Shown here in pieces: positions 10,514 to 16,633 of a DNA stretch of 64,000 bases. This stretch comes from Blastocatellia bacterium. Its GTDB lineage: Bacteria; Acidobacteriota; Blastocatellia; Pyrinomonadales; Pyrinomonadaceae. A program made the position numbers and the translations under genes. The stretch spans positions 20,734 through 84,733 of the forward strand of contig CAWEIN010000024.1 of the NCBI GenBank assembly GCA_963809065.1. The letters run 5' to 3'. The notes beneath the pieces were generated by a model. That model did no database searches, was not told the origin of the DNA, and saw nothing but the letters and a program-made list of their open reading frames with translations. Positions within the stretch are counted from its first letter, which is position 1; each line of letters begins with the position of its first letter.

Positions 10514-10591
10514 CTCCGGGTTGTGTCTGGTCAGCAGTTCAGATTATTCTCGCGCGACCATTCTATAAGTTGACCTTTGGTCGCGACAACT

Positions 10592-11802
10592 ATGATGGAA
10601 ACAGCGGAAGTTGTAATTATCGGCAGCGGCATTGTCGGCTCCAGCGTGGCCTATCACCTTGCCGAGCAAGGCTGCACCAACGTCCTGGTAATCGAACGCG
10701 AAGCCCATCAGGGCAAAGGCTCAACTGGAAAAAGCATGGGTGGCGTGCGGGCGCAGTTTGCCACGCCGGTTAACATTCAGATGTCGCGCTACTCGATCGA
10801 CTTCTTTTCGCGTTTCGACGAAGTGATCGGGCACCCGGCTGACTATCGTGCCCATGGCTATCTGTTTTGCGCCACCACCGAGCGGCATCTCGAGTATCTC
10901 AAAACAAATCGCAACGGCAGTTGGCCCTTGGCGTTAAGAACGTCGAACTGGTTTCGCGCGAAGACATCGCGAAGTTTGTGCCGCAACTGCGCGTTGATGA
11001 CATACTCGGTGGCACGTTCTGTCAAACGGATGGCTTCGTCGATCCGCACAGCGTGATGATGGGTTTTATGCTCAACGCGCGCGAACGCGGCGTTCGCCTT
11101 TGGCTCGACACTCAAGTTACCGGGATTGAAGTTGAGAGAGGTGCTGGGACCGCGGGCGTCTCGCCCGCTTCCGATCCGGGATCGACAACGTCCCGAATCA
11201 CCGGCGTGATGACAACGCGTGGTCGGGTCTCAACCCCGATCGTGGTCAACGCCGCGGGCGCGTGGGCTGCGGAAGTTGCCGGATTCGCCGGCTCGGAGTT
11301 GCCGGTCGAACCCTTGCGTCGGCAGCTTGTTCCCACCGAACCGTTCGACGGTCTTCCACAACGGTTCCCCATGGTCATCGATATGTCTACCGGTTTTCAT
11401 TTCCGTCGCGAGGGAAAAGGAATTCTGTTGGCTTGGAACGATCCGGACGAGACTCCGGGATTCAAGACTGACTTTGACCCTGCGTTTGTGGAAAAGATTC
11501 TGACCCGCGCCGCCGATCGCGTGCCGCGTCTGGCTGAGGCCGAAGTGAATCCGCGCCGCGCCTGGGCAGGTCTTTATGAGATGACTCCCGACCACCACGC
11601 TGTCATTGGTCCTGCGCCCGATGTGGCGGGCTTGTATTTTGTCAACGGATTTAGTGGACACGGTGTCATGCACTCCCCCGCTTCGGGACGCATTACGGCC
11701 GACCTGATTCTCAATGGTCATTCCGAGCTCGTCGATGCGACCCAGCTGAATGTGGCACGGTTTGCGAGGGGCCAGTTACTCGAAGAGACCGCAGTGTTGT
11801 GA
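10592..11802 (+). pseudogene. FAD-dependent oxidoreductase (DAO / sarcosine-oxidase-beta family), interrupted by one frameshift near 10905-10920
   Basis: The N-terminal part is in frame 2 ([21 protein letters not shown] dinucleotide fold) and the rest in frame 1 ([14 protein letters not shown]...VVNAAGAWA...[11 protein letters not shown]). The two ORFs overlap at 10867-11056. Confidence 0.8.
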
Positions 11803-11945
11803 AGAGCTGAGCACGCTGGCTGGATATGCCGTGGCTGGCCTGTTTTCAGATATTGACTCCGGATAACTTCTCACTTATAAACCAAGCGCGCCCGGCCTGA
11901 CAGCGGCTAATCGGTTCATCTCACGTAGTCTCAAAGGATCAGATC

Positions 11946-14021
11946 ATGCCTCCAACAATCAATGCCGATACAATCACTTTCGAAAACAAGCACACCGCGA
12001 GAGCAGTCTTCCCAACGGCAGGTGACAGTGATGGAAACATCATTGACGCACTCGACCTGGTCGACTACAAAGCTGTGCTCCTCATCATCGGCGGGGCGGA
12101 TAATCTGACCGACTCCCTCAAGCCCAAGCTCACTCAATTGTTTTCCCGCGGCATCGCCCGCGCAGCGATGGGTGTGAACGCCGTAATTCTCGACGGCGGC
12201 ACAAAAGCCGGCGTGATGGAGATGATGGGCCAGGGTGTGGCCGATCGCGGTTTTAAGTCGCAGTTGATCGGAGTCGCTCCGCGTGGACTGGTTAATTACC
12301 CAGGCAGCAAAGGTGCGGGCGAAACGCAACTCGATCCCAACCATACACACTTCGTACTCGTCGATGGCGAAGCCTGGGGAGACGAAACTGGCAGCCTGTT
12401 TGATCTCGCCGTTGCGCTAACTAATAAGAAACCAACGAATAAGAAACTAACGAACAAGAAACTGCCGGTCATAGCTCTGCTTACCGCGGGCGGAGACACC
12501 ACCAAAAAAGAAGCGTTGCTGGCCGTCCGTCAAAACATTCCATTGATTGTCGTTGAGGGTAGCGGCGGTATGGCCGATGAGATCGCCACCGCCTGGAGAG
12601 CCAGGACGAACCTGCCGGACGATCCGATCATGGCCGAGATCATCGCCGACGGCAGAATTGAACTTTACCTGTTAAGTAGTTCGGTAAAAAGTGCTGAACG
12701 TTTGATCCTACGAGAGCTCGGTGACGATAACGTCCTGCTGCAAGCCTGGGGGCGCTTTGCCGACTACGATCTTAACGCGATTCTGCAGCAGAAGAGATTT
12801 CACCGCCAGCAGCAAGCGATTCTAATAATCGGACTTCTGATTACAGCTCTGGCACTGATAAACGAGATATATAACGGAAATCAGCAACGGCTCAGCTTTG
12901 AGCGTTGGTGGCCAATTGTTCGGGAAGGTGAAATCTTTAATGGGCCAATCGGTTGGACAATCGTTCACTACTTACTGATAGCCTCACCAATCCTCGTTAC
13001 GGTTCTCATAACTGCTGCGAGTCGGTTCAAACAGGGAAACAAGTGGCTCTTGTTGCGGGCCGGCGCCGAGGCGATCAAGCGCGAGATTTATCGTTTTCGA
13101 GCCGGTGCTGACGCTTATGCCGAACAAGTTGTAACCTCGACGGCAACCCCACCTGCGGGTACAACGACAGCGCTTCCAACACCTCCGCCTGAACAGGTCT
13201 TAGCGAAAAGAGTTGAAGACATCACCCGGCGCGTTATGCGTACCGAGGTAAATTCGACGAGCCTCGTTCCCTATGATAGAGAAAAGGGCTTTCCGCCGGA
13301 CATGTACGCTGCTCAGAGTGGAGATGACGGTTTTAGCCCGCTAACCGGGGATCAATATGTTCGTTTACGTCTGGGAGGCCAGCTCTCCTTTTACAGAAAA
13401 AAAACCGTCAAGCTTGAAAAGCAATTGAAATGGGTTCAGTGGTCGATCTTCATAGTCGGTGGTTTGGGGACTTTTCTAGCAGCAATTAGCCGGCAAGTCT
13501 GGGTTGCGTTGACTACAGCAGTGGCTGCGGCGCTAACGACGTATTTAAGTTATCACCAAACCGAAAACACTCTGACGAAATACAATCAGGCCGCCACGGA
13601 TCTTGAAAACTGCAAGGCATGGTGGACCGCACTGACGGCGGACGAGCAGGCCAACCCGGAGAACGTCACCGCGCTCGTGAATCATACTGAACAAGTGCTC
13701 GAGTCAGAGTTGAACGGCTGGGTGCAACAGATGCAGGACGCCCTGGCAAACCTCCGAGACAGTCAGGAACCGAAAAAGCAAGTGCCTGCGCCGGAGGAAG
13801 ATCCCAGCAAACCACTGGCGCCCGCGAATGGCCAGCCACCTGCCGATGGCCAGGCCGAAGATGAGCCACCCGCTGATGGCGAGCCACCCGCTGATGGTGA
13901 ACCACCTGCTGATGGTGAATCACCCGCTGATGGCGAGCCACCCGCTGATGGTGAACCACCTGCCGATGGTGAACCACCCGCTGATGGTGAACCGCCTCCG
14001 GATCAGCCAGGCGACGACTAA
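11946..14021 (+). CDS. TRPM-like SLOG (LSDAT) domain fused to two SLATT/DUF4231-like 2TM modules, with a C-terminal EPPADG repeat tail
   Basis: Gly-rich Rossmann motifs LLIIGGADN, VILDGGTKAGVMEMMG, THFVLVDGEAWGDE, LLTAGGDTTKKE and IVVEGSGGMADEIA. Two TM hairpins follow: ILIIGLLITALALINEIY with IVHYLLIASPILVTVLITAA, and WSIFIVGGLGTFLAAI with VWVALTTAVAAALTTYL. Confidence 0.7.
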   Translation: MPPTINADTITFENKHTARAVFPTAGDSDGNIIDALDLVDYKAVLLIIGGADNLTDSLKPKLTQLFSRGIARAAMGVNAVILDGGTKAGVMEMMGQGVADRGFKSQLIGVAPRGLVNYPGSKGAGETQLDPNHTHFVLVDGEAWGDETGSLFDLAVALTNKKPTNKKLTNKKLPVIALLTAGGDTTKKEALLAVRQNIPLIVVEGSGGMADEIATAWRARTNLPDDPIMAEIIADGRIELYLLSSSVKSAERLILRELGDDNVLLQAWGRFADYDLNAILQQKRFHRQQQAILIIGLLITALALINEIYNGNQQRLSFERWWPIVREGEIFNGPIGWTIVHYLLIASPILVTVLITAASRFKQGNKWLLLRAGAEAIKREIYRFRAGADAYAEQVVTSTATPPAGTTTALPTPPPEQVLAKRVEDITRRVMRTEVNSTSLVPYDREKGFPPDMYAAQSGDDGFSPLTGDQYVRLRLGGQLSFYRKKTVKLEKQLKWVQWSIFIVGGLGTFLAAISRQVWVALTTAVAAALTTYLSYHQTENTLTKYNQAATDLENCKAWWTALTADEQANPENVTALVNHTEQVLESELNGWVQQMQDALANLRDSQEPKKQVPAPEEDPSKPLAPANGQPPADGQAEDEPPADGEPPADGEPPADGESPADGEPPADGEPPADGEPPADGEPPPDQPGDD
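13830..14003 (+). repeat. 18-bp in-frame tandem repeat (~9.7 copies) encoding (E/Q)PPADG
   Basis: gagccacccgctgatggc units with synonymous and third-base variation. Confidence 0.9.
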
Positions 14022-14074
14022 TAAGACTCAAGCTGCAATGAGAAGCTCTGCCTTGAGGTCTGAAACATTACCTT

Positions 14075-14270
14075 TCATTCACACCGGGCTTAAGTCCGGT
14101 GATATGTGCAACACGAGGTTAGTGAACCGTTTTAACGGTTTACTCCTCTTCAGCAGATTGAGCGTAGTTTAGTCCGAAGAAGTTGCCTCGTCAGTCGGAG
14201 AGAGAATCCGTTAAAACAATTCTTATTATCCGGTGCGGTATATCACTGGGCTGAAGCCCGGTGTGAATGA
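14075..14270. repeat. Palindromic element with arms tcattcacaccgggcttaagtccggtgatat
   Basis: The left arm starts at 14075 and the right arm ends at 14270. There is an inner secondary inverted repeat (ccgttttaacgg / ccgttaaaac). Confidence 0.8.
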
Positions 14271-14324
14271 TACGTAATCTTTCTAGGCAAATCAGCAGCG
14301 AGATCAGGGCTGAAAAGTTCTGGC

Positions 14325-15162: not shown

Positions 15163-15235
15163 GACCGCGGACTCCAGGGAATTGACGAGCGCTTGCCATT
15201 CATGTTCCCCTGCAACGCCAACCAGGAGCAATAAA

Positions 15236-16633
15236 ATGTCGGGCCGGACTTATCTCCGCAAGAATTCAATCGTCCTTCCCGGTGTTCTAAGTGCCGCGGT
15301 CTATTTATTAATTTTTGTCTTCTACCTTCGAGGCCCTCGAGCTTATTCCCGCACTCCGCGAGAATTGTTCGCCTGGTTTTTCTGTATTGCGTTGCTGCTC
15401 CTCTTTCGGAAAGGTTACCAACGAATCAGACTCGCGGATAAGCCTCCGATTCGTGCAATCCTAGGCTTTGCCGCGATTTTCTGTTTTTTAGCTTTCCTTA
15501 CTTTTCCGTTTCATTCGACCGATGTCTTTGGTTACATCAATCGTGGCTGGCAACAGGTCAACTACGGGCAAAATCCTTACGTTCATCACTTAAACGACAT
15601 TCCAAACTGGCGCCAGGATCCAATGTTGCGAGAACACTGGATCTACAATCCGAATCCCTATGGCTTCCTGTTCACCTTACTGGCAAGACTCATTACCTGG
15701 TTAAGTGCCGGCAATTGGTGGGCGGCCCTGGCGCTATTCAAAGCGACTAACATTCTTGCCTATGCCGGAACCGGCTGGCTACTCTGGTCGGCGTCGAAGC
15801 AGGTCTCATACATCAGACCAGAAACCGCTCTATATCTTTTTCTCTGGAACCCGCTAATACTGCTGCACCACATTGCTAATGGGCACAATGACTTGCTTGT
15901 TGGTTTCATGGTCGCACTCTCGGTCTACCTGGCGCTCACGCGAAGATACTTTTGGATTGTTCCGGCGTTGGTTGCCGCCACGCTTTTGAAATTTGGACCG
16001 GTATTGCTCATACCGCCGGCCCTGGTGCTGGTCATAAAAAAAGCGGGATGGAAGACTGCCGCACTAAGTTGCCTGGTTGCGCTGGTGATCTCGGCCCTTA
16101 TCTGTTTTCCTTACTTGCGCGATTGGCAGCAATTGAGACTGGTTGACATGCAGGACAACGCGACCCTGATCGACAACTCACTGCACTCACTATTGATTCA
16201 CATATTTGAGAACATCGCTCGTGTCTTTTCCGCTCTAGCGCCACTGCATTCGACAGTTAACTCGGCGATAAAAGCAATTCTGCGCGTGAGCCTGATTGTA
16301 TTCGTAGTGTATCAGTGGCTAAAGATACCCAAAGACTTCACCGCGAAAGTGTTTGCCTCGAAATCTCTTTGGATTCTTTTCGCGCTCATCTGCGTGGCAA
16401 GCTCTAAGTTCAACGCCTGGTATATGGGAATGCTTTTGCCACTCGCCCTTTTGCTCGACGATGAGTATCCGCTACGACGGCTGGTGGTCTTGATGTCATG
16501 CACGCAGTTGCTGTCGCTTACTTTCCTCAAGCAGGCATACATGTTGAATTATTTTGCCCTGATGTTGATACCGGCGTGGCTGATCTTCAGAAAGAGAAAA
16601 AAACCAACTCAGATGGCAGAAAGCAAAGCTTGA
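15236..16633 (+). CDS. Polytopic membrane protein, DUF2029/GT87 (MptB-like) glycosyltransferase family
   Basis: More than 10 predicted TM helices, with the loop motif HSTDVFGYINRGWQQVNYGQNPY. AGGAG RBS before the ATG at 15236. Confidence 0.5.
   Translation: MSGRTYLRKNSIVLPGVLSAAVYLLIFVFYLRGPRAYSRTPRELFAWFFCIALLLLFRKGYQRIRLADKPPIRAILGFAAIFCFLAFLTFPFHSTDVFGYINRGWQQVNYGQNPYVHHLNDIPNWRQDPMLREHWIYNPNPYGFLFTLLARLITWLSAGNWWAALALFKATNILAYAGTGWLLWSASKQVSYIRPETALYLFLWNPLILLHHIANGHNDLLVGFMVALSVYLALTRRYFWIVPALVAATLLKFGPVLLIPPALVLVIKKAGWKTAALSCLVALVISALICFPYLRDWQQLRLVDMQDNATLIDNSLHSLLIHIFENIARVFSALAPLHSTVNSAIKAILRVSLIVFVVYQWLKIPKDFTAKVFASKSLWILFALICVASSKFNAWYMGMLLPLALLLDDEYPLRRLVVLMSCTQLLSLTFLKQAYMLNYFALMLIPAWLIFRKRKKPTQMAESKA

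Follow-up and report, generated by a model that had tools for sequence, protein, structure and literature searches.

A TRPM-like SLOG sensor joined to two SLATT membrane modules at a conserved Pyrinomonadaceae locus, a candidate effector of Thoeris-like TIR systems

The stretch of DNA analysed here (hereafter the window, 64,000 nucleotides from a Pyrinomonadaceae bacterium) contains at positions 11946..14021 on the forward strand, stop codon included, one complete and intact open reading frame (ORF) that encodes a protein of 691 amino acids. Pfam, NCBIfam, an alignment of homologs and an AF2 model confirm its domain order as SLOG(LSDAT_prok)-DUF4231-SLATT_1. Inspection of the sequence located a Shine-Dalgarno-like AAGGA at 11934..11938 (+), with the ATG 7 nt downstream, and homologs align with the SLOG-SLATT protein from residue 1. 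A scan for sigma-70 promoters and terminators, using a sigma-70 model that is uninformative for Acidobacteriota, gave nothing above the shuffled expectation. The gene has no paralog within the 64-kb window. Its neighbours were annotated by Pfam as GDH, TonB, NHL, DinB, DAO, Abhydrolase_11, GT87 and alanine racemase.

All Pfam matches were judged against the curated gathering cut-offs and exceeded them. LSDAT_prok (PF18171) matched residues 43-222 with 164.6 bits (cut-off 25.4; E=2e-48), DUF4231 (PF14015) residues 282-394 with 33.0 bits (cut-off 24.7; E=8e-8) and SLATT_1 (PF18181) residues 471-592 with 81.3 bits (cut-off 26.3; E=8e-23). The eukaryotic model, LSDAT_euk, matched with 80.9 bits (E=1e-22), and the NCBIfam model of SLATT_1 scored 91 bits against a cut-off of 41 (E=6e-26). 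The AF2 model of the 691-residue chain had a mean pLDDT of 81.6 and a pTM of 0.71.

The N-terminal part of the protein (residues 1-258, 11946..12719, +; Pfam core residues 43-222) is a cytoplasmic SLOG domain resembling the MHR1/2 sensor of TRPM channels by Pfam, phmmer and Foldseek. It was modelled with pLDDT values above 90 across most of residues 11-250. Direct phmmer matches were obtained to nvTRPM2 (6co7, E=8e-15) and TRPM8 (6bpq, E=1e-14), and the best 50 Foldseek matches of the SLOG half of the model were all TRPM structures, including 7aov and 6pkx, with E-values down to 2e-13 and TMt values of 0.54 for 7aov and 0.75 for 9nw3_6A. Only the ~300 N-terminal residues superpose on TRPM with low r.m.s.d. 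Among prokaryotic proteins, the SLOG-SLATT architecture is the one most closely related to the ligand-sensing domain of TRPM. The sensor folds are homologous and share the glycine-rich motifs and the GSG helix cap, which binds the ADPR phosphates and is conserved between TRPM2 and the domain described here. In contrast, MHR3/4, the six-TM TRP pore and the TRP helix of TRPM2, TRPM8 and other TRPM channels are absent, and the membrane half is unrelated.

Residues conserved across the family in the SLOG domain are G49, D83, G85, G89, G95, G109, N132, H133, W144, G182, R195, G205, G207, A210, D211 and E231. The MHR1/2 region of TRPM2 binds ADPR and 8-Br-cADPR (PMC6759353). In a pairwise phmmer alignment to 7aov, the ADPR contacts Y295, R302 and R358 of human TRPM2 correspond to E147, L154 and G208, so ADPR is not the straightforward prediction for the SLOG ligand. 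The conserved glycine-rich loops and the TIR linkage of relatives described below suggest that the domain may bind a nucleotide-derived ligand.

SLOG is the superfamily of the LOG enzymes, and the protein could alternatively be a membrane-anchored enzyme, in which a LOG-type, phosphoribohydrolase-like SLOG domain would, at the membrane, break down or process a nucleotide instead of gating a pore. R195, which is invariant in the SLOG-SLATT family, and the conserved acidic residues D211 and E231 would suit catalysis, and the LOG-like model TIGR00725 gave a weak match at residues 181-215 (E=0.0035). However, this match scored 16.8 bits against a cut-off of 106.9, and the sensor clade of TRPM MHR1/2, which is non-enzymatic, gave the best profile and fold matches. 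Moreover, conservation peaks in the transmembrane (TM) and juxtamembrane helices, which a mere anchor would not need. We therefore consider a catalytic role very unlikely.

Hydropathy and the AF2 model place four TM helices in two hairpins, at about residues 291-309, 339-357, 497-515 and 518-536. In the model, each hairpin is trailed by long helices. The charge pattern is positive-inside and fits the predicted topology. The first SLATT-clan module (DUF4231; residues 262-390, 12729..13115, +), delimited by Pfam, hydropathy, AF2 and charge pattern, consists of a pre-TM helix that runs unbroken into TM1 (291-309), a periplasmic loop (310-338), TM2 (339-357) and a juxtamembrane helix (363-386), with AF2 helices at 262-308, 333-360 and 363-386. 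The loop is poorly conserved and the juxtamembrane helix highly so; W367, R371, E375, K378, E380 and R385 are 97-100% conserved. A cytoplasmic linker (13116..13355, +), defined by conservation and AF2, follows. Its Pro/Thr-rich residues 391-414 are variable (conservation 0.17), compared with 0.54 for the conserved residues 415-470, and it is modelled as a helix at 415-431 and otherwise as coil.

The second module (SLATT_1; residues 471-607, 13356..13766, +), recognised by Pfam, NCBIfam and AF2, comprises a pre-TM helix, TM3 (497-515) with a GGxG motif, a tight turn, TM4 (518-536) with a TT motif and two long, conserved cytoplasmic helices. AF2 helices span residues 468-513, 517-537 and 539-607, and N547, L553, L577, E582 and W592 are 100% conserved. 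The two modules are weakly similar to each other (E=0.001). Together, the TM and juxtamembrane helices show the strongest conservation in the protein. A Foldseek search of the membrane half against the PDB returned no significant match (best E 0.24), and no Pfam ion-channel domain was matched in the protein. SLATT domains, for which no structure has been solved, may permeabilise the membrane or form a pore.

These results agree with the original prediction, which had been made from the sequence alone and described a TRPM-like SLOG domain fused to two SLATT-type two-TM modules. The five glycine-rich motifs that it quoted are all present and in the quoted order. The checks that it proposed gave LSDAT_prok and SLATT-clan profile matches above the cut-offs and a predicted structure whose SLOG half matches TRPM MHR1/2, in line with the phmmer matches to TRPM2 and TRPM8. 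Both TM hairpins with their trailing helices were recovered by hydropathy and AF2.

The C-terminus is an acidic, disordered tail (residues 608-691, 13767..14018, +), identified by pLDDT values below 50 and by its Pro/Ala/Glu/Gly-rich composition, with a net charge of -22. Tandem Repeats Finder (TRF) detected an 18-nt tandem repeat in it (13862-13993, +), encoding about seven copies of EPPADG. Such tails are present in the clade of the window's protein, with a median length of 87 residues and no conservation of sequence. A second TRF repeat (12417..12463, +) is an in-frame 15-nt unit present 3.1 times, which codes for KKPTN/KKLTN, inserted into a surface loop of the SLOG domain. This loop is occupied in about one third of the homologs, and its local pLDDT dips to 67.

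Two in-frame repeat expansions within one ORF, a frameshifted neighbouring gene (DAO, see below) and the lack of a nearby partner are what might be expected if the gene were a non-functional remnant of a TIR system now lost, on its way to becoming a pseudogene. The repeats are, however, confined to a variable loop and the disordered tail, and the ORF is intact over its 691 codons. dN/dS values of 0.17-0.19 against the three closest orthologs indicate purifying selection, which acts on the SLOG and membrane halves alike (0.14-0.22). Of the 90 positions conserved across the SLOG-SLATT family, the protein has the consensus residue at 89, and the gene is kept across the whole bacterial family. Decay into a relic is thus hardly credible.

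In Pyrinomonadaceae, the locus is a conserved one, passed on vertically and flanked by housekeeping genes. Synteny of the flanking genes, with the SLOG-SLATT gene in place, is seen in the relatives' loci L001, L002, L017, L018/19 and L006/7. The syntenic orthologs share 54-83% identity, and the GC content of the gene is unremarkable. The suggestion in the original prediction that the gene is an accessory insertion therefore fails: it is contradicted by the synteny across Pyrinomonadaceae, the normal GC content and the dN/dS of ~0.17. The gene lies among housekeeping neighbours at a syntenic site, and not in a defence island or mobile element. Separately, no homologs were found on viral contigs in IMG/VR, which led us to reject a viral origin.

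Downstream of the gene, which converges with its 3' neighbour, the intergenic region holds a 222-nt inverted-repeat element (14062..14283) whose 44-nt arms are 86% complementary. It had been called a REP element. An arm search allowing up to three mismatches found one copy in the 64-kb window, and the entire intergenic sequence, compared by blastn with 98 loci, had one partial relative, in L079, so the element was not found to be repetitive in the sequences searched. Rfam returned noise and no match. The element probably plays no part in the function of the SLOG-SLATT gene.

Upstream, on the same strand, lies a gene for a DAO-family FAD oxidoreductase (10577..11802, +), a clade-specific syntenic neighbour with an apparent frameshift in the window, around 10900-10940. 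In 12 loci DAO lies immediately upstream on the same strand, ~127-312 nt away. The two genes could in principle form one unit, in which the SLOG-SLATT protein senses or transports the product of the oxidoreductase. The gaps are not operon-tight, however, and the pairing is seen in one clade and in no other branch of the family. In L001 (73% identity) DAO has been lost although the downstream synteny persists, and in the window it is the DAO gene that carries the frameshift while the SLOG-SLATT ORF is intact. We regard a functional partnership as extremely unlikely; the clade-limited synteny and the frameshift rule against the oxidoreductase as a partner. A metabolic operon conserved around the homologs, which the original prediction had named as evidence against its reading, was found in this trivial form only: DAO upstream in a single clade, missing elsewhere and frameshifted here.

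Asking how relatives of the gene are organised, we surveyed the neighbourhoods of homologs. A TIR-domain gene lies at most two genes from the homolog in 17 of 97 loci and directly adjacent to it in 15. TIR ORFs are concentrated close to the homologs, with 18 among the 269 genes within two positions compared with 7 among the 419 farther off (Fisher p=0.001). Homolog and TIR gene often meet at tight junctions, which measure -4 nt (L016, L037), -8 nt (L071), +9 nt (L062, L056) and +17 nt (L097). The TIR partners have at least seven architectures (TIR-WD40, TIR-TPR, TIR-NHL, TIR-pentapeptide, TIR only, SIR2-TIR with nSTAND1, and TIR-AAA_16-TPR), which argues for repeated, independent coupling. In addition, single-chain fusions exist, namely TIR_2-SLOG-SLATT (P0378) and nSTAND1-SLOG-SLATT (P0245). 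TIR-linked members are spread across deep branches of the family tree. Linkage or fusion of relatives to TIR or STAND modules thus makes a Thoeris-like membrane effector, gated by a TIR signal, the best reading of the family. This operon coupling and these fusions also provide the strongest support for the nucleotide-gated membrane effector proposed in the original prediction.

The clade of the window's copy is a derived one, nested among the TIR-linked members, and none of its loci has an adjacent TIR gene (0 of 19, compared with 17 of the 74 other loci; Fisher p=0.019). As had been predicted, the window's copy has no adjacent cyclase, SMODS or TIR partner. The search for TIR genes, by six-frame TIR-HMM and tblastn, found none in the 64-kb window, and SMODS/cyclase and STAND genes were found neither adjoining the gene nor elsewhere within these 64 kb. 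Pfam annotation of the neighbouring genes, both in the window and in the annotated loci of relatives, revealed no CD-NTase (SMODS) gene. L006 and L007, which belong to the same clade, carry a TIR and nSTAND1 pair ~6.4 kb away. The clade keeps 89 of the 90 family-wide conserved positions and differs by two clade-specific switches only.

We propose that SLOG-SLATT proteins are nucleotide-sensing effectors of Thoeris-like TIR systems and that the window's copy is served in trans or by an endogenous metabolite, a reading to which we give slightly better than even chances. The protein would be an inner-membrane protein with four TM helices and both termini in the cytoplasm. Its N-terminal cytoplasmic SLOG domain, as the prokaryotic counterpart of TRPM MHR1/2, would serve as a sensor of small nucleotides, and the two SLATT hairpins with their conserved juxtamembrane helices as the output module. 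A TIR-type signal derived from NAD+, such as a cADPR isomer or an ADPR conjugate, would bind in the SLOG cleft, and the resulting change may be relayed along the long helix that is predicted to connect the SLOG domain and TM1 without a break. Rearrangement or oligomerisation of the TM hairpins would follow and yield an assembly that conducts or breaches the membrane. The collapse of the membrane potential would lead to growth arrest resembling abortive infection. By this model, the whole SLOG-SLATT family would form the effector arm of Thoeris-like TIR systems. As the window's clade has no adjacent TIR gene, its signal would come from a generator elsewhere in the genome or from an endogenous metabolite. 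Counting against the proposal are the lack of TIR, SMODS and STAND genes in the window, the lack of adjacent TIR genes in the clade, the housekeeping neighbours and the lack of viral homologs. Further points against it are the negative E. coli test of two TIR plus 'SLOG and 4TM' operons described below, the differing residues at the ADPR-contact positions of TRPM2 and the membrane half's lack of a PDB match.

The same absence of adjacent TIR genes (0/19 against 17/74) could also mean that the Pyrinomonadaceae clade descends from a TIR-coupled immune effector that lost its linked generator and now acts as a housekeeping, nucleotide-gated channel. Such a domesticated channel would respond to endogenous ADPR or another NAD+ breakdown product under stress, independently of TIR and in a manner similar to TRPM2. 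A fixed chromosomal site among housekeeping genes, orthologs at 54-83% identity, purifying selection on both halves and normal GC content are consistent with this. However, apart from the two clade-specific switches, the SLOG pocket and gating residues are the same as in TIR-linked members, so nothing points to a different ligand in the window's clade. In addition, L006 and L007 retain the TIR and nSTAND1 pair at a distance, and unlinked effectors equally fit signalling in trans. We therefore consider domestication unlikely. If it were true, the clade would represent a bacterial functional analogue of the ADPR-gated TRPM2, with the same sensor domain and an unrelated pore.

Proteins of this kind, LSDAT_prok-SLATT (PF18171, PF14015 and PF18181), were reportedly described by Burroughs, Zhang, Schaffer, Iyer and Aravind in 2015. 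The window's protein has the same domain order and Pfam composition, with no structural difference, and is set apart by its syntenic clade without an adjacent TIR gene. The family comprises ~1,000 clusters at 50% identity (E<=1e-30), of which the window's copy is an ordinary full-length member, and JGI names it 'TRPM family ion channel / conflict system pore-forming effector with SLATT domain'. PADLOC assigned to the window's protein a CBASS-type 2TM model only, and weakly (E=0.022); two TIR-linked homologs gave no match. CBASS 2TM and 4TM effectors likewise use SLATT-clan TM hairpins as nucleotide-activated membrane effectors, but their sensor is SAVED or a bare SLATT, whereas the window's protein would sense through SLOG and has no CD-NTase/SMODS gene near it.

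Among putative Thoeris effectors, a 2025 preprint includes one named 'SLOG and 4TM' that is paired with a TIR gene (10.64898/2025.12.03.692087, Tables S1/S2). This pairing is the arrangement that we find in 17 loci and in L097, and from which the window's copy differs in having no TIR gene. Going by the description, these effectors, IMG genes 2862473379 and 2691454910, appear to be of the same family as the window's protein; the TIRs of the preprint's '4TM SLOG' systems showed no meaningful similarity by blastp to those of the relatives' loci. The one experimental test found, in the heterologous host E. coli, was negative: two TIR plus 'SLOG and 4TM' systems, one from Streptomyces sp. GKU 895 and one from Ca. 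Nitrospira nitrosa, conferred no defence (10.64898/2025.12.03.692087). The statement in the original prediction that the architecture lacks experimental characterisation thus has to be qualified in view of these two operons. The SLOG domain of ThsA (type I Thoeris, SIR2-SLOG) binds 3'cADPR, and the type VII Thoeris effector ThsH, a SLATT protein, is activated by cADPR that a TIR has made (10.64898/2025.12.03.692087). Each of them has one of the two module types, ThsH lacking SLOG and ThsA lacking a membrane module and using a different SLOG subfamily, whereas the window's protein joins SLOG and SLATT in one chain. Compared with Thoeris as a whole, the window's copy has, by homology, a nucleotide-sensing effector domain and no adjoining TIR generator.

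The SLOG-SLATT family is large, already annotated by public pipelines and biochemically uncharacterised, and the window's gene is one of its ordinary members. What is new here are natural TIR and SLOG-SLATT operons with seven TIR partner architectures, and TIR-SLOG-SLATT and nSTAND1-SLOG-SLATT single-chain fusions, which are possible minimal experimental systems. The conserved clade without an adjacent TIR gene, also new, raises the question of how unlinked effectors are controlled. If the family were confirmed as a TIR-signal-gated pore, it would constitute an additional type of Thoeris and would link the way in which nucleotide gating arose in the TRPM channels of animals with NAD-derived immune signalling in bacteria.

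The gene at 11946–14021 (+) encodes a 691-aa protein and has an AAGGA ribosome-binding site 7 nt 5′ of the ORF. All five glycine-rich motifs listed in the original prediction were found, in the order stated. Pfam models matched LSDAT_prok at aa 43–222 (E = 2e-48; 164.6 bits against a cut-off of 25.4), LSDAT_euk (E = 1e-22), DUF4231 at aa 282–394 (E = 8e-8) and SLATT_1 at aa 471–592 (E = 8e-23), the last of which was also assigned by NCBIfam. The sole match in PADLOC v2, which has no effector model for SLOG-SLATT, was a weak '2TM effector' (E = 0.022). The topology was analysed using Kyte–Doolittle hydropathy and two AlphaFold2 models, one of the full-length protein (pLDDT 81.6, pTM 0.71) and one of aa 259–610 alone (pLDDT 87.3, pTM 0.84). 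Both approaches place four TM helices, paired as two hairpins (~291–309, 339–357, 497–515 and 518–536); the models add long helices before and after each hairpin and a disordered tail at aa 618–691. The charges of the TM flanks (+3, +4 and +5 on the cytoplasmic side; 0 on loop 310–338) fit an N-in/C-in topology. The DUF4231 and SLATT_1 modules resemble each other weakly (E = 0.001), and their sequences are consistent with a duplicated SLATT unit.

Two in-frame tandem repeats lie within the gene. The first, at 13862–13993 (18-nt unit, 7.3 copies), encodes EPPADG in the disordered acidic tail, with a net charge of −22; acidic Pro/Ala/Glu/Gly-rich tails with differing repeat units are found clade-wide (median 87 aa). 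The second, at 12417–12463 (15-nt unit, 3.1 copies), encodes KKPTN/KKLTN in a SLOG surface loop present in only about a third of the homologs.

The N-terminal half had been predicted to be a TRPM-like SLOG domain. In addition to the Pfam LSDAT matches, a phmmer search of PDB sequences returned only TRPM channels, namely nvTRPM2 (6co7, E = 8e-15) and TRPM8 (6bpq, E = 1e-14), followed in order by TRPM2, 3, 1, 5, 7 and 4. The best 50 Foldseek matches of the model were likewise all TRPM entries, among them the crystal structure of TRPM2 MHR1/2 (7aov, TMt 0.54) and zebrafish TRPM2 with bound ADPR (6pkx), and the superposition covers the N-terminal ~300 residues. These matches confirm the TRPM-like assignment.

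Human TRPM2 holds ADPR with Y295, R302, R358 and the N-terminal end of helix α7 (PMC6759353). In a pairwise phmmer alignment to 7aov, in which zebrafish numbering equals human minus 24, these residues correspond to E147, L154 and G208 of the window protein, and the GSG helix cap (G205-S206-G207) is conserved. This suggests that both proteins share a phosphate-binding scaffold, whereas the TRPM2-specific side chains appear to have no counterpart. A different set of polar residues is invariant in the bacterial family (D83, N132, H133, R195, D211 and E231), and judging from the alignment its SLOG ligand need not be ADPR.

The membrane half yielded no phmmer match to PDB sequences and nothing significant among PDB structures (best Foldseek E = 0.24, TM below 0.3), and is not a TRP-type pore. 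Conservation across 80 homologs peaks in the post-TM2 helix (W367, R371, E375, K378, E380, R385), in TM3/TM4 (GGxG and TT motifs) and in the C-terminal helices (N547, L553, L577, E582, W592), while the periplasmic loop, the Pro/Thr linker and the tail vary. Such a pattern fits a gating or oligomerisation apparatus on the cytoplasmic side better than it fits a passive anchor.

Homologs are encoded in thirteen species-representative genomes and 80 metagenome contigs, and searching 1.84 billion representatives exhaustively by HMM gave 1,008 clusters at E ≤ 1e-30. Clustering of neighbouring genes at all 97 loci revealed one recurrent partner outside the syntenic clade of the window gene, a ~1,000-aa protein combining TIR_2 with a WD40 propeller. 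Its gene comes immediately downstream of the homolog in the same orientation, at a spacing of −8 nt (L071) or +9 nt (L062, L056). Using an HMM built from the TIR proteins found beside homologs, we located a TIR gene at most two genes away in 17 of the 97 loci, adjacent in 15; TIR ORFs made up 18 of 269 genes within two positions, compared with 7 of 419 farther out (p = 0.001). The partners include TIR-WD40, TIR-TPR, TIR-NHL propeller, TIR-pentapeptide, TIR alone (ThsB-like), SIR2-TIR with nSTAND1, and TIR-AAA_16-TPR (17 nt upstream, L097). At a Chitinophagaceae locus (L016, 51% identity), the homolog and a SIR2_2+TIR_2 gene overlap, stop to start, by 4 nt, and an nSTAND1/AAA_16 NTPase gene follows 9 nt later; L008 has the same SIR2-TIR and nSTAND1 pair.

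Several representatives join these parts in one chain: P0378 (761 aa) is a TIR_2-LSDAT_prok-DUF4231-SLATT_1 fusion, P0245 (1055 aa) carries nSTAND1 on the SLOG-DUF4231-SLATT_1 core, and P0243 (1080 aa) has a tandem SLOG-SLOG-SLATT arrangement. All three are candidates for a single-chain form of the system. In Pfam architecture, the TIR-linked actinobacterial branch is identical to the window protein.

Other neighbours were also observed. At three loci of a divergent branch (L082:6247–8995, L083 and L063) the homolog precedes a convergent gene pair, which encodes TPR-S (a TPR sensor) and a 689-aa protein lacking any match in Pfam. An unannotated protein of ~200 aa (cluster C10) flanks the homologs of another branch (L073, L077, L080, L068, L076, L096). 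Cell-wall hydrolase genes recur near SLOG-SLATT homologs: LprI lysozyme-inhibitor-like and GH108 muramidase genes accompany those in L073, L077 and L080, and in L008 an N-acetylmuramidase gene lies between homolog and SIR2-TIR.

The best-supported reading is that the SLOG-SLATT family is the effector arm of Thoeris-like systems. Beyond architecture and linkage, we infer a sequence in which the repeat or STAND domains of the TIR protein would sense infection, the TIR protein would make an NAD+-derived nucleotide, the SLOG domain would bind it, and the SLATT hairpins would rearrange or oligomerise, breaching or depolarising the membrane. Each element has experimental precedent, but in other proteins: the ThsA SLOG binds 3′cADPR and ThsH, a SLATT effector, is responsive to cADPR made by TIR proteins (preprint 10.64898/2025.12.03.692087), and TRPM2 MHR1/2 binds ADPR and 8-Br-cADPR (PMC6759353). 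The original prediction is partly supported: its effector interpretation is strengthened for the family by TIR/STAND linkage, its insertion is contradicted, and its REP element is not confirmed.

The window gene does stand alone, as predicted: tblastn and a local TIR HMM run on six-frame ORFs detected no TIR or nSTAND relative across the 64 kb. Its neighbours encode glutamate dehydrogenase, two TonB-C proteins, an NHL propeller, a DinB_2 protein and, directly upstream on the same strand, a DAO-family FAD oxidoreductase (10577–11802, +), followed on the other side by a convergent Abhydrolase_11, a GT87-like membrane protein and alanine racemase. Pyrinomonadaceae and other Blastocatellia share the block NHL, DinB, DAO, focal gene, convergent Abhydrolase_11 and alanine racemase, kept at 54–83% protein identity of the focal gene. 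The GC content is unremarkable, and dN/dS against the three closest orthologs is 0.17–0.19 for the whole gene (SLOG half 0.21–0.22; membrane half 0.14–0.17). These results contradict an accessory insertion; the gene is vertically inherited under purifying selection. Compared with the closest syntenic genomes, the local gene order departs at one place only, the GT87-like polytopic glycosyltransferase gene (15182–16633, +) between Abhydrolase_11 and alanine racemase; relatives (cluster C16) lie near the focal gene in L004, L018 and L019, and the position is empty in L001 and L002.

The presumed REP element, which separates the SLOG-SLATT gene from the convergent Abhydrolase_11 gene, is a 222-nt inverted repeat at 14062–14283. 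Its 44-nt arms are 86% complementary and lie 134 nt apart, and a second inverted repeat, of 18 nt, is nested within it. Only one copy occurs in the window, Rfam gives no match, and a related contig holds one partial relative (L079:4182–4267), results that do not establish a repetitive element; a MITE-like element is conceivable, as is a plain bidirectional terminator.

The DAO gene was considered as a functional partner and rejected. It occupies position −1 in 12 loci but is clade-limited, absent upstream in L001 (where downstream synteny is retained) and in every other branch, and split over two frames in the window, and for these reasons we regard it as a syntenic neighbour. When aligned to the window, the intact 403-aa L017 ortholog covers 10592–10939 with aa 1–116 and 10900–11799 with aa 104–403, at ~90% identity either side of a frameshift near 10900–10940, which reflects either a recent pseudogene or a sequencing error.

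In a neighbour-joining tree, many of the deep branches hold TIR-linked members, among which the DAO-flanked clade of the window gene is nested. None of its 19 loci has a TIR gene within two genes, compared with 17 of the 74 loci with neighbours elsewhere (p = 0.019). The window protein has the consensus residue at 89 of the 90 positions conserved across the family (the exception being G478 for D), and this clade differs systematically from TIR-linked members at two positions only. The signal for the window copy could come from a TIR protein encoded elsewhere in the genome. Two members of this otherwise TIR-less clade carry TIR_2 and then an nSTAND1 NTPase ~6.4 kb downstream of the SLOG-SLATT gene (L006:18422–21953, L007:18579–21899), recalling the SIR2-TIR and nSTAND1 pair of L016 and L008; this could be a remnant or an in-trans partner. 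The signal could instead be an endogenous metabolite, the window copy having been domesticated into an endogenously gated channel, a reading that seems rather unlikely.

The SLOG-SLATT architecture was reportedly defined by computation in 2015 by Burroughs et al. It is covered by dedicated Pfam models and carries the JGI label 'TRPM family ion channel/conflict system pore-forming effector with SLATT domain'. The literature yielded no experimental work on SLOG-SLATT beyond the 2025 TIR-systems preprint, which lists '4TM SLOG', only presumed to be the same family, among 29 putative Thoeris types and in which two such operons (Streptomyces sp. GKU 895, Ca. Nitrospira nitrosa) gave no defence in E. 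coli (10.64898/2025.12.03.692087). The window gene is one more member of a known, biochemically uncharacterised family, and nothing categorically new. The family is nonetheless experimentally attractive, and a conserved clade without an adjacent TIR is a real puzzle.
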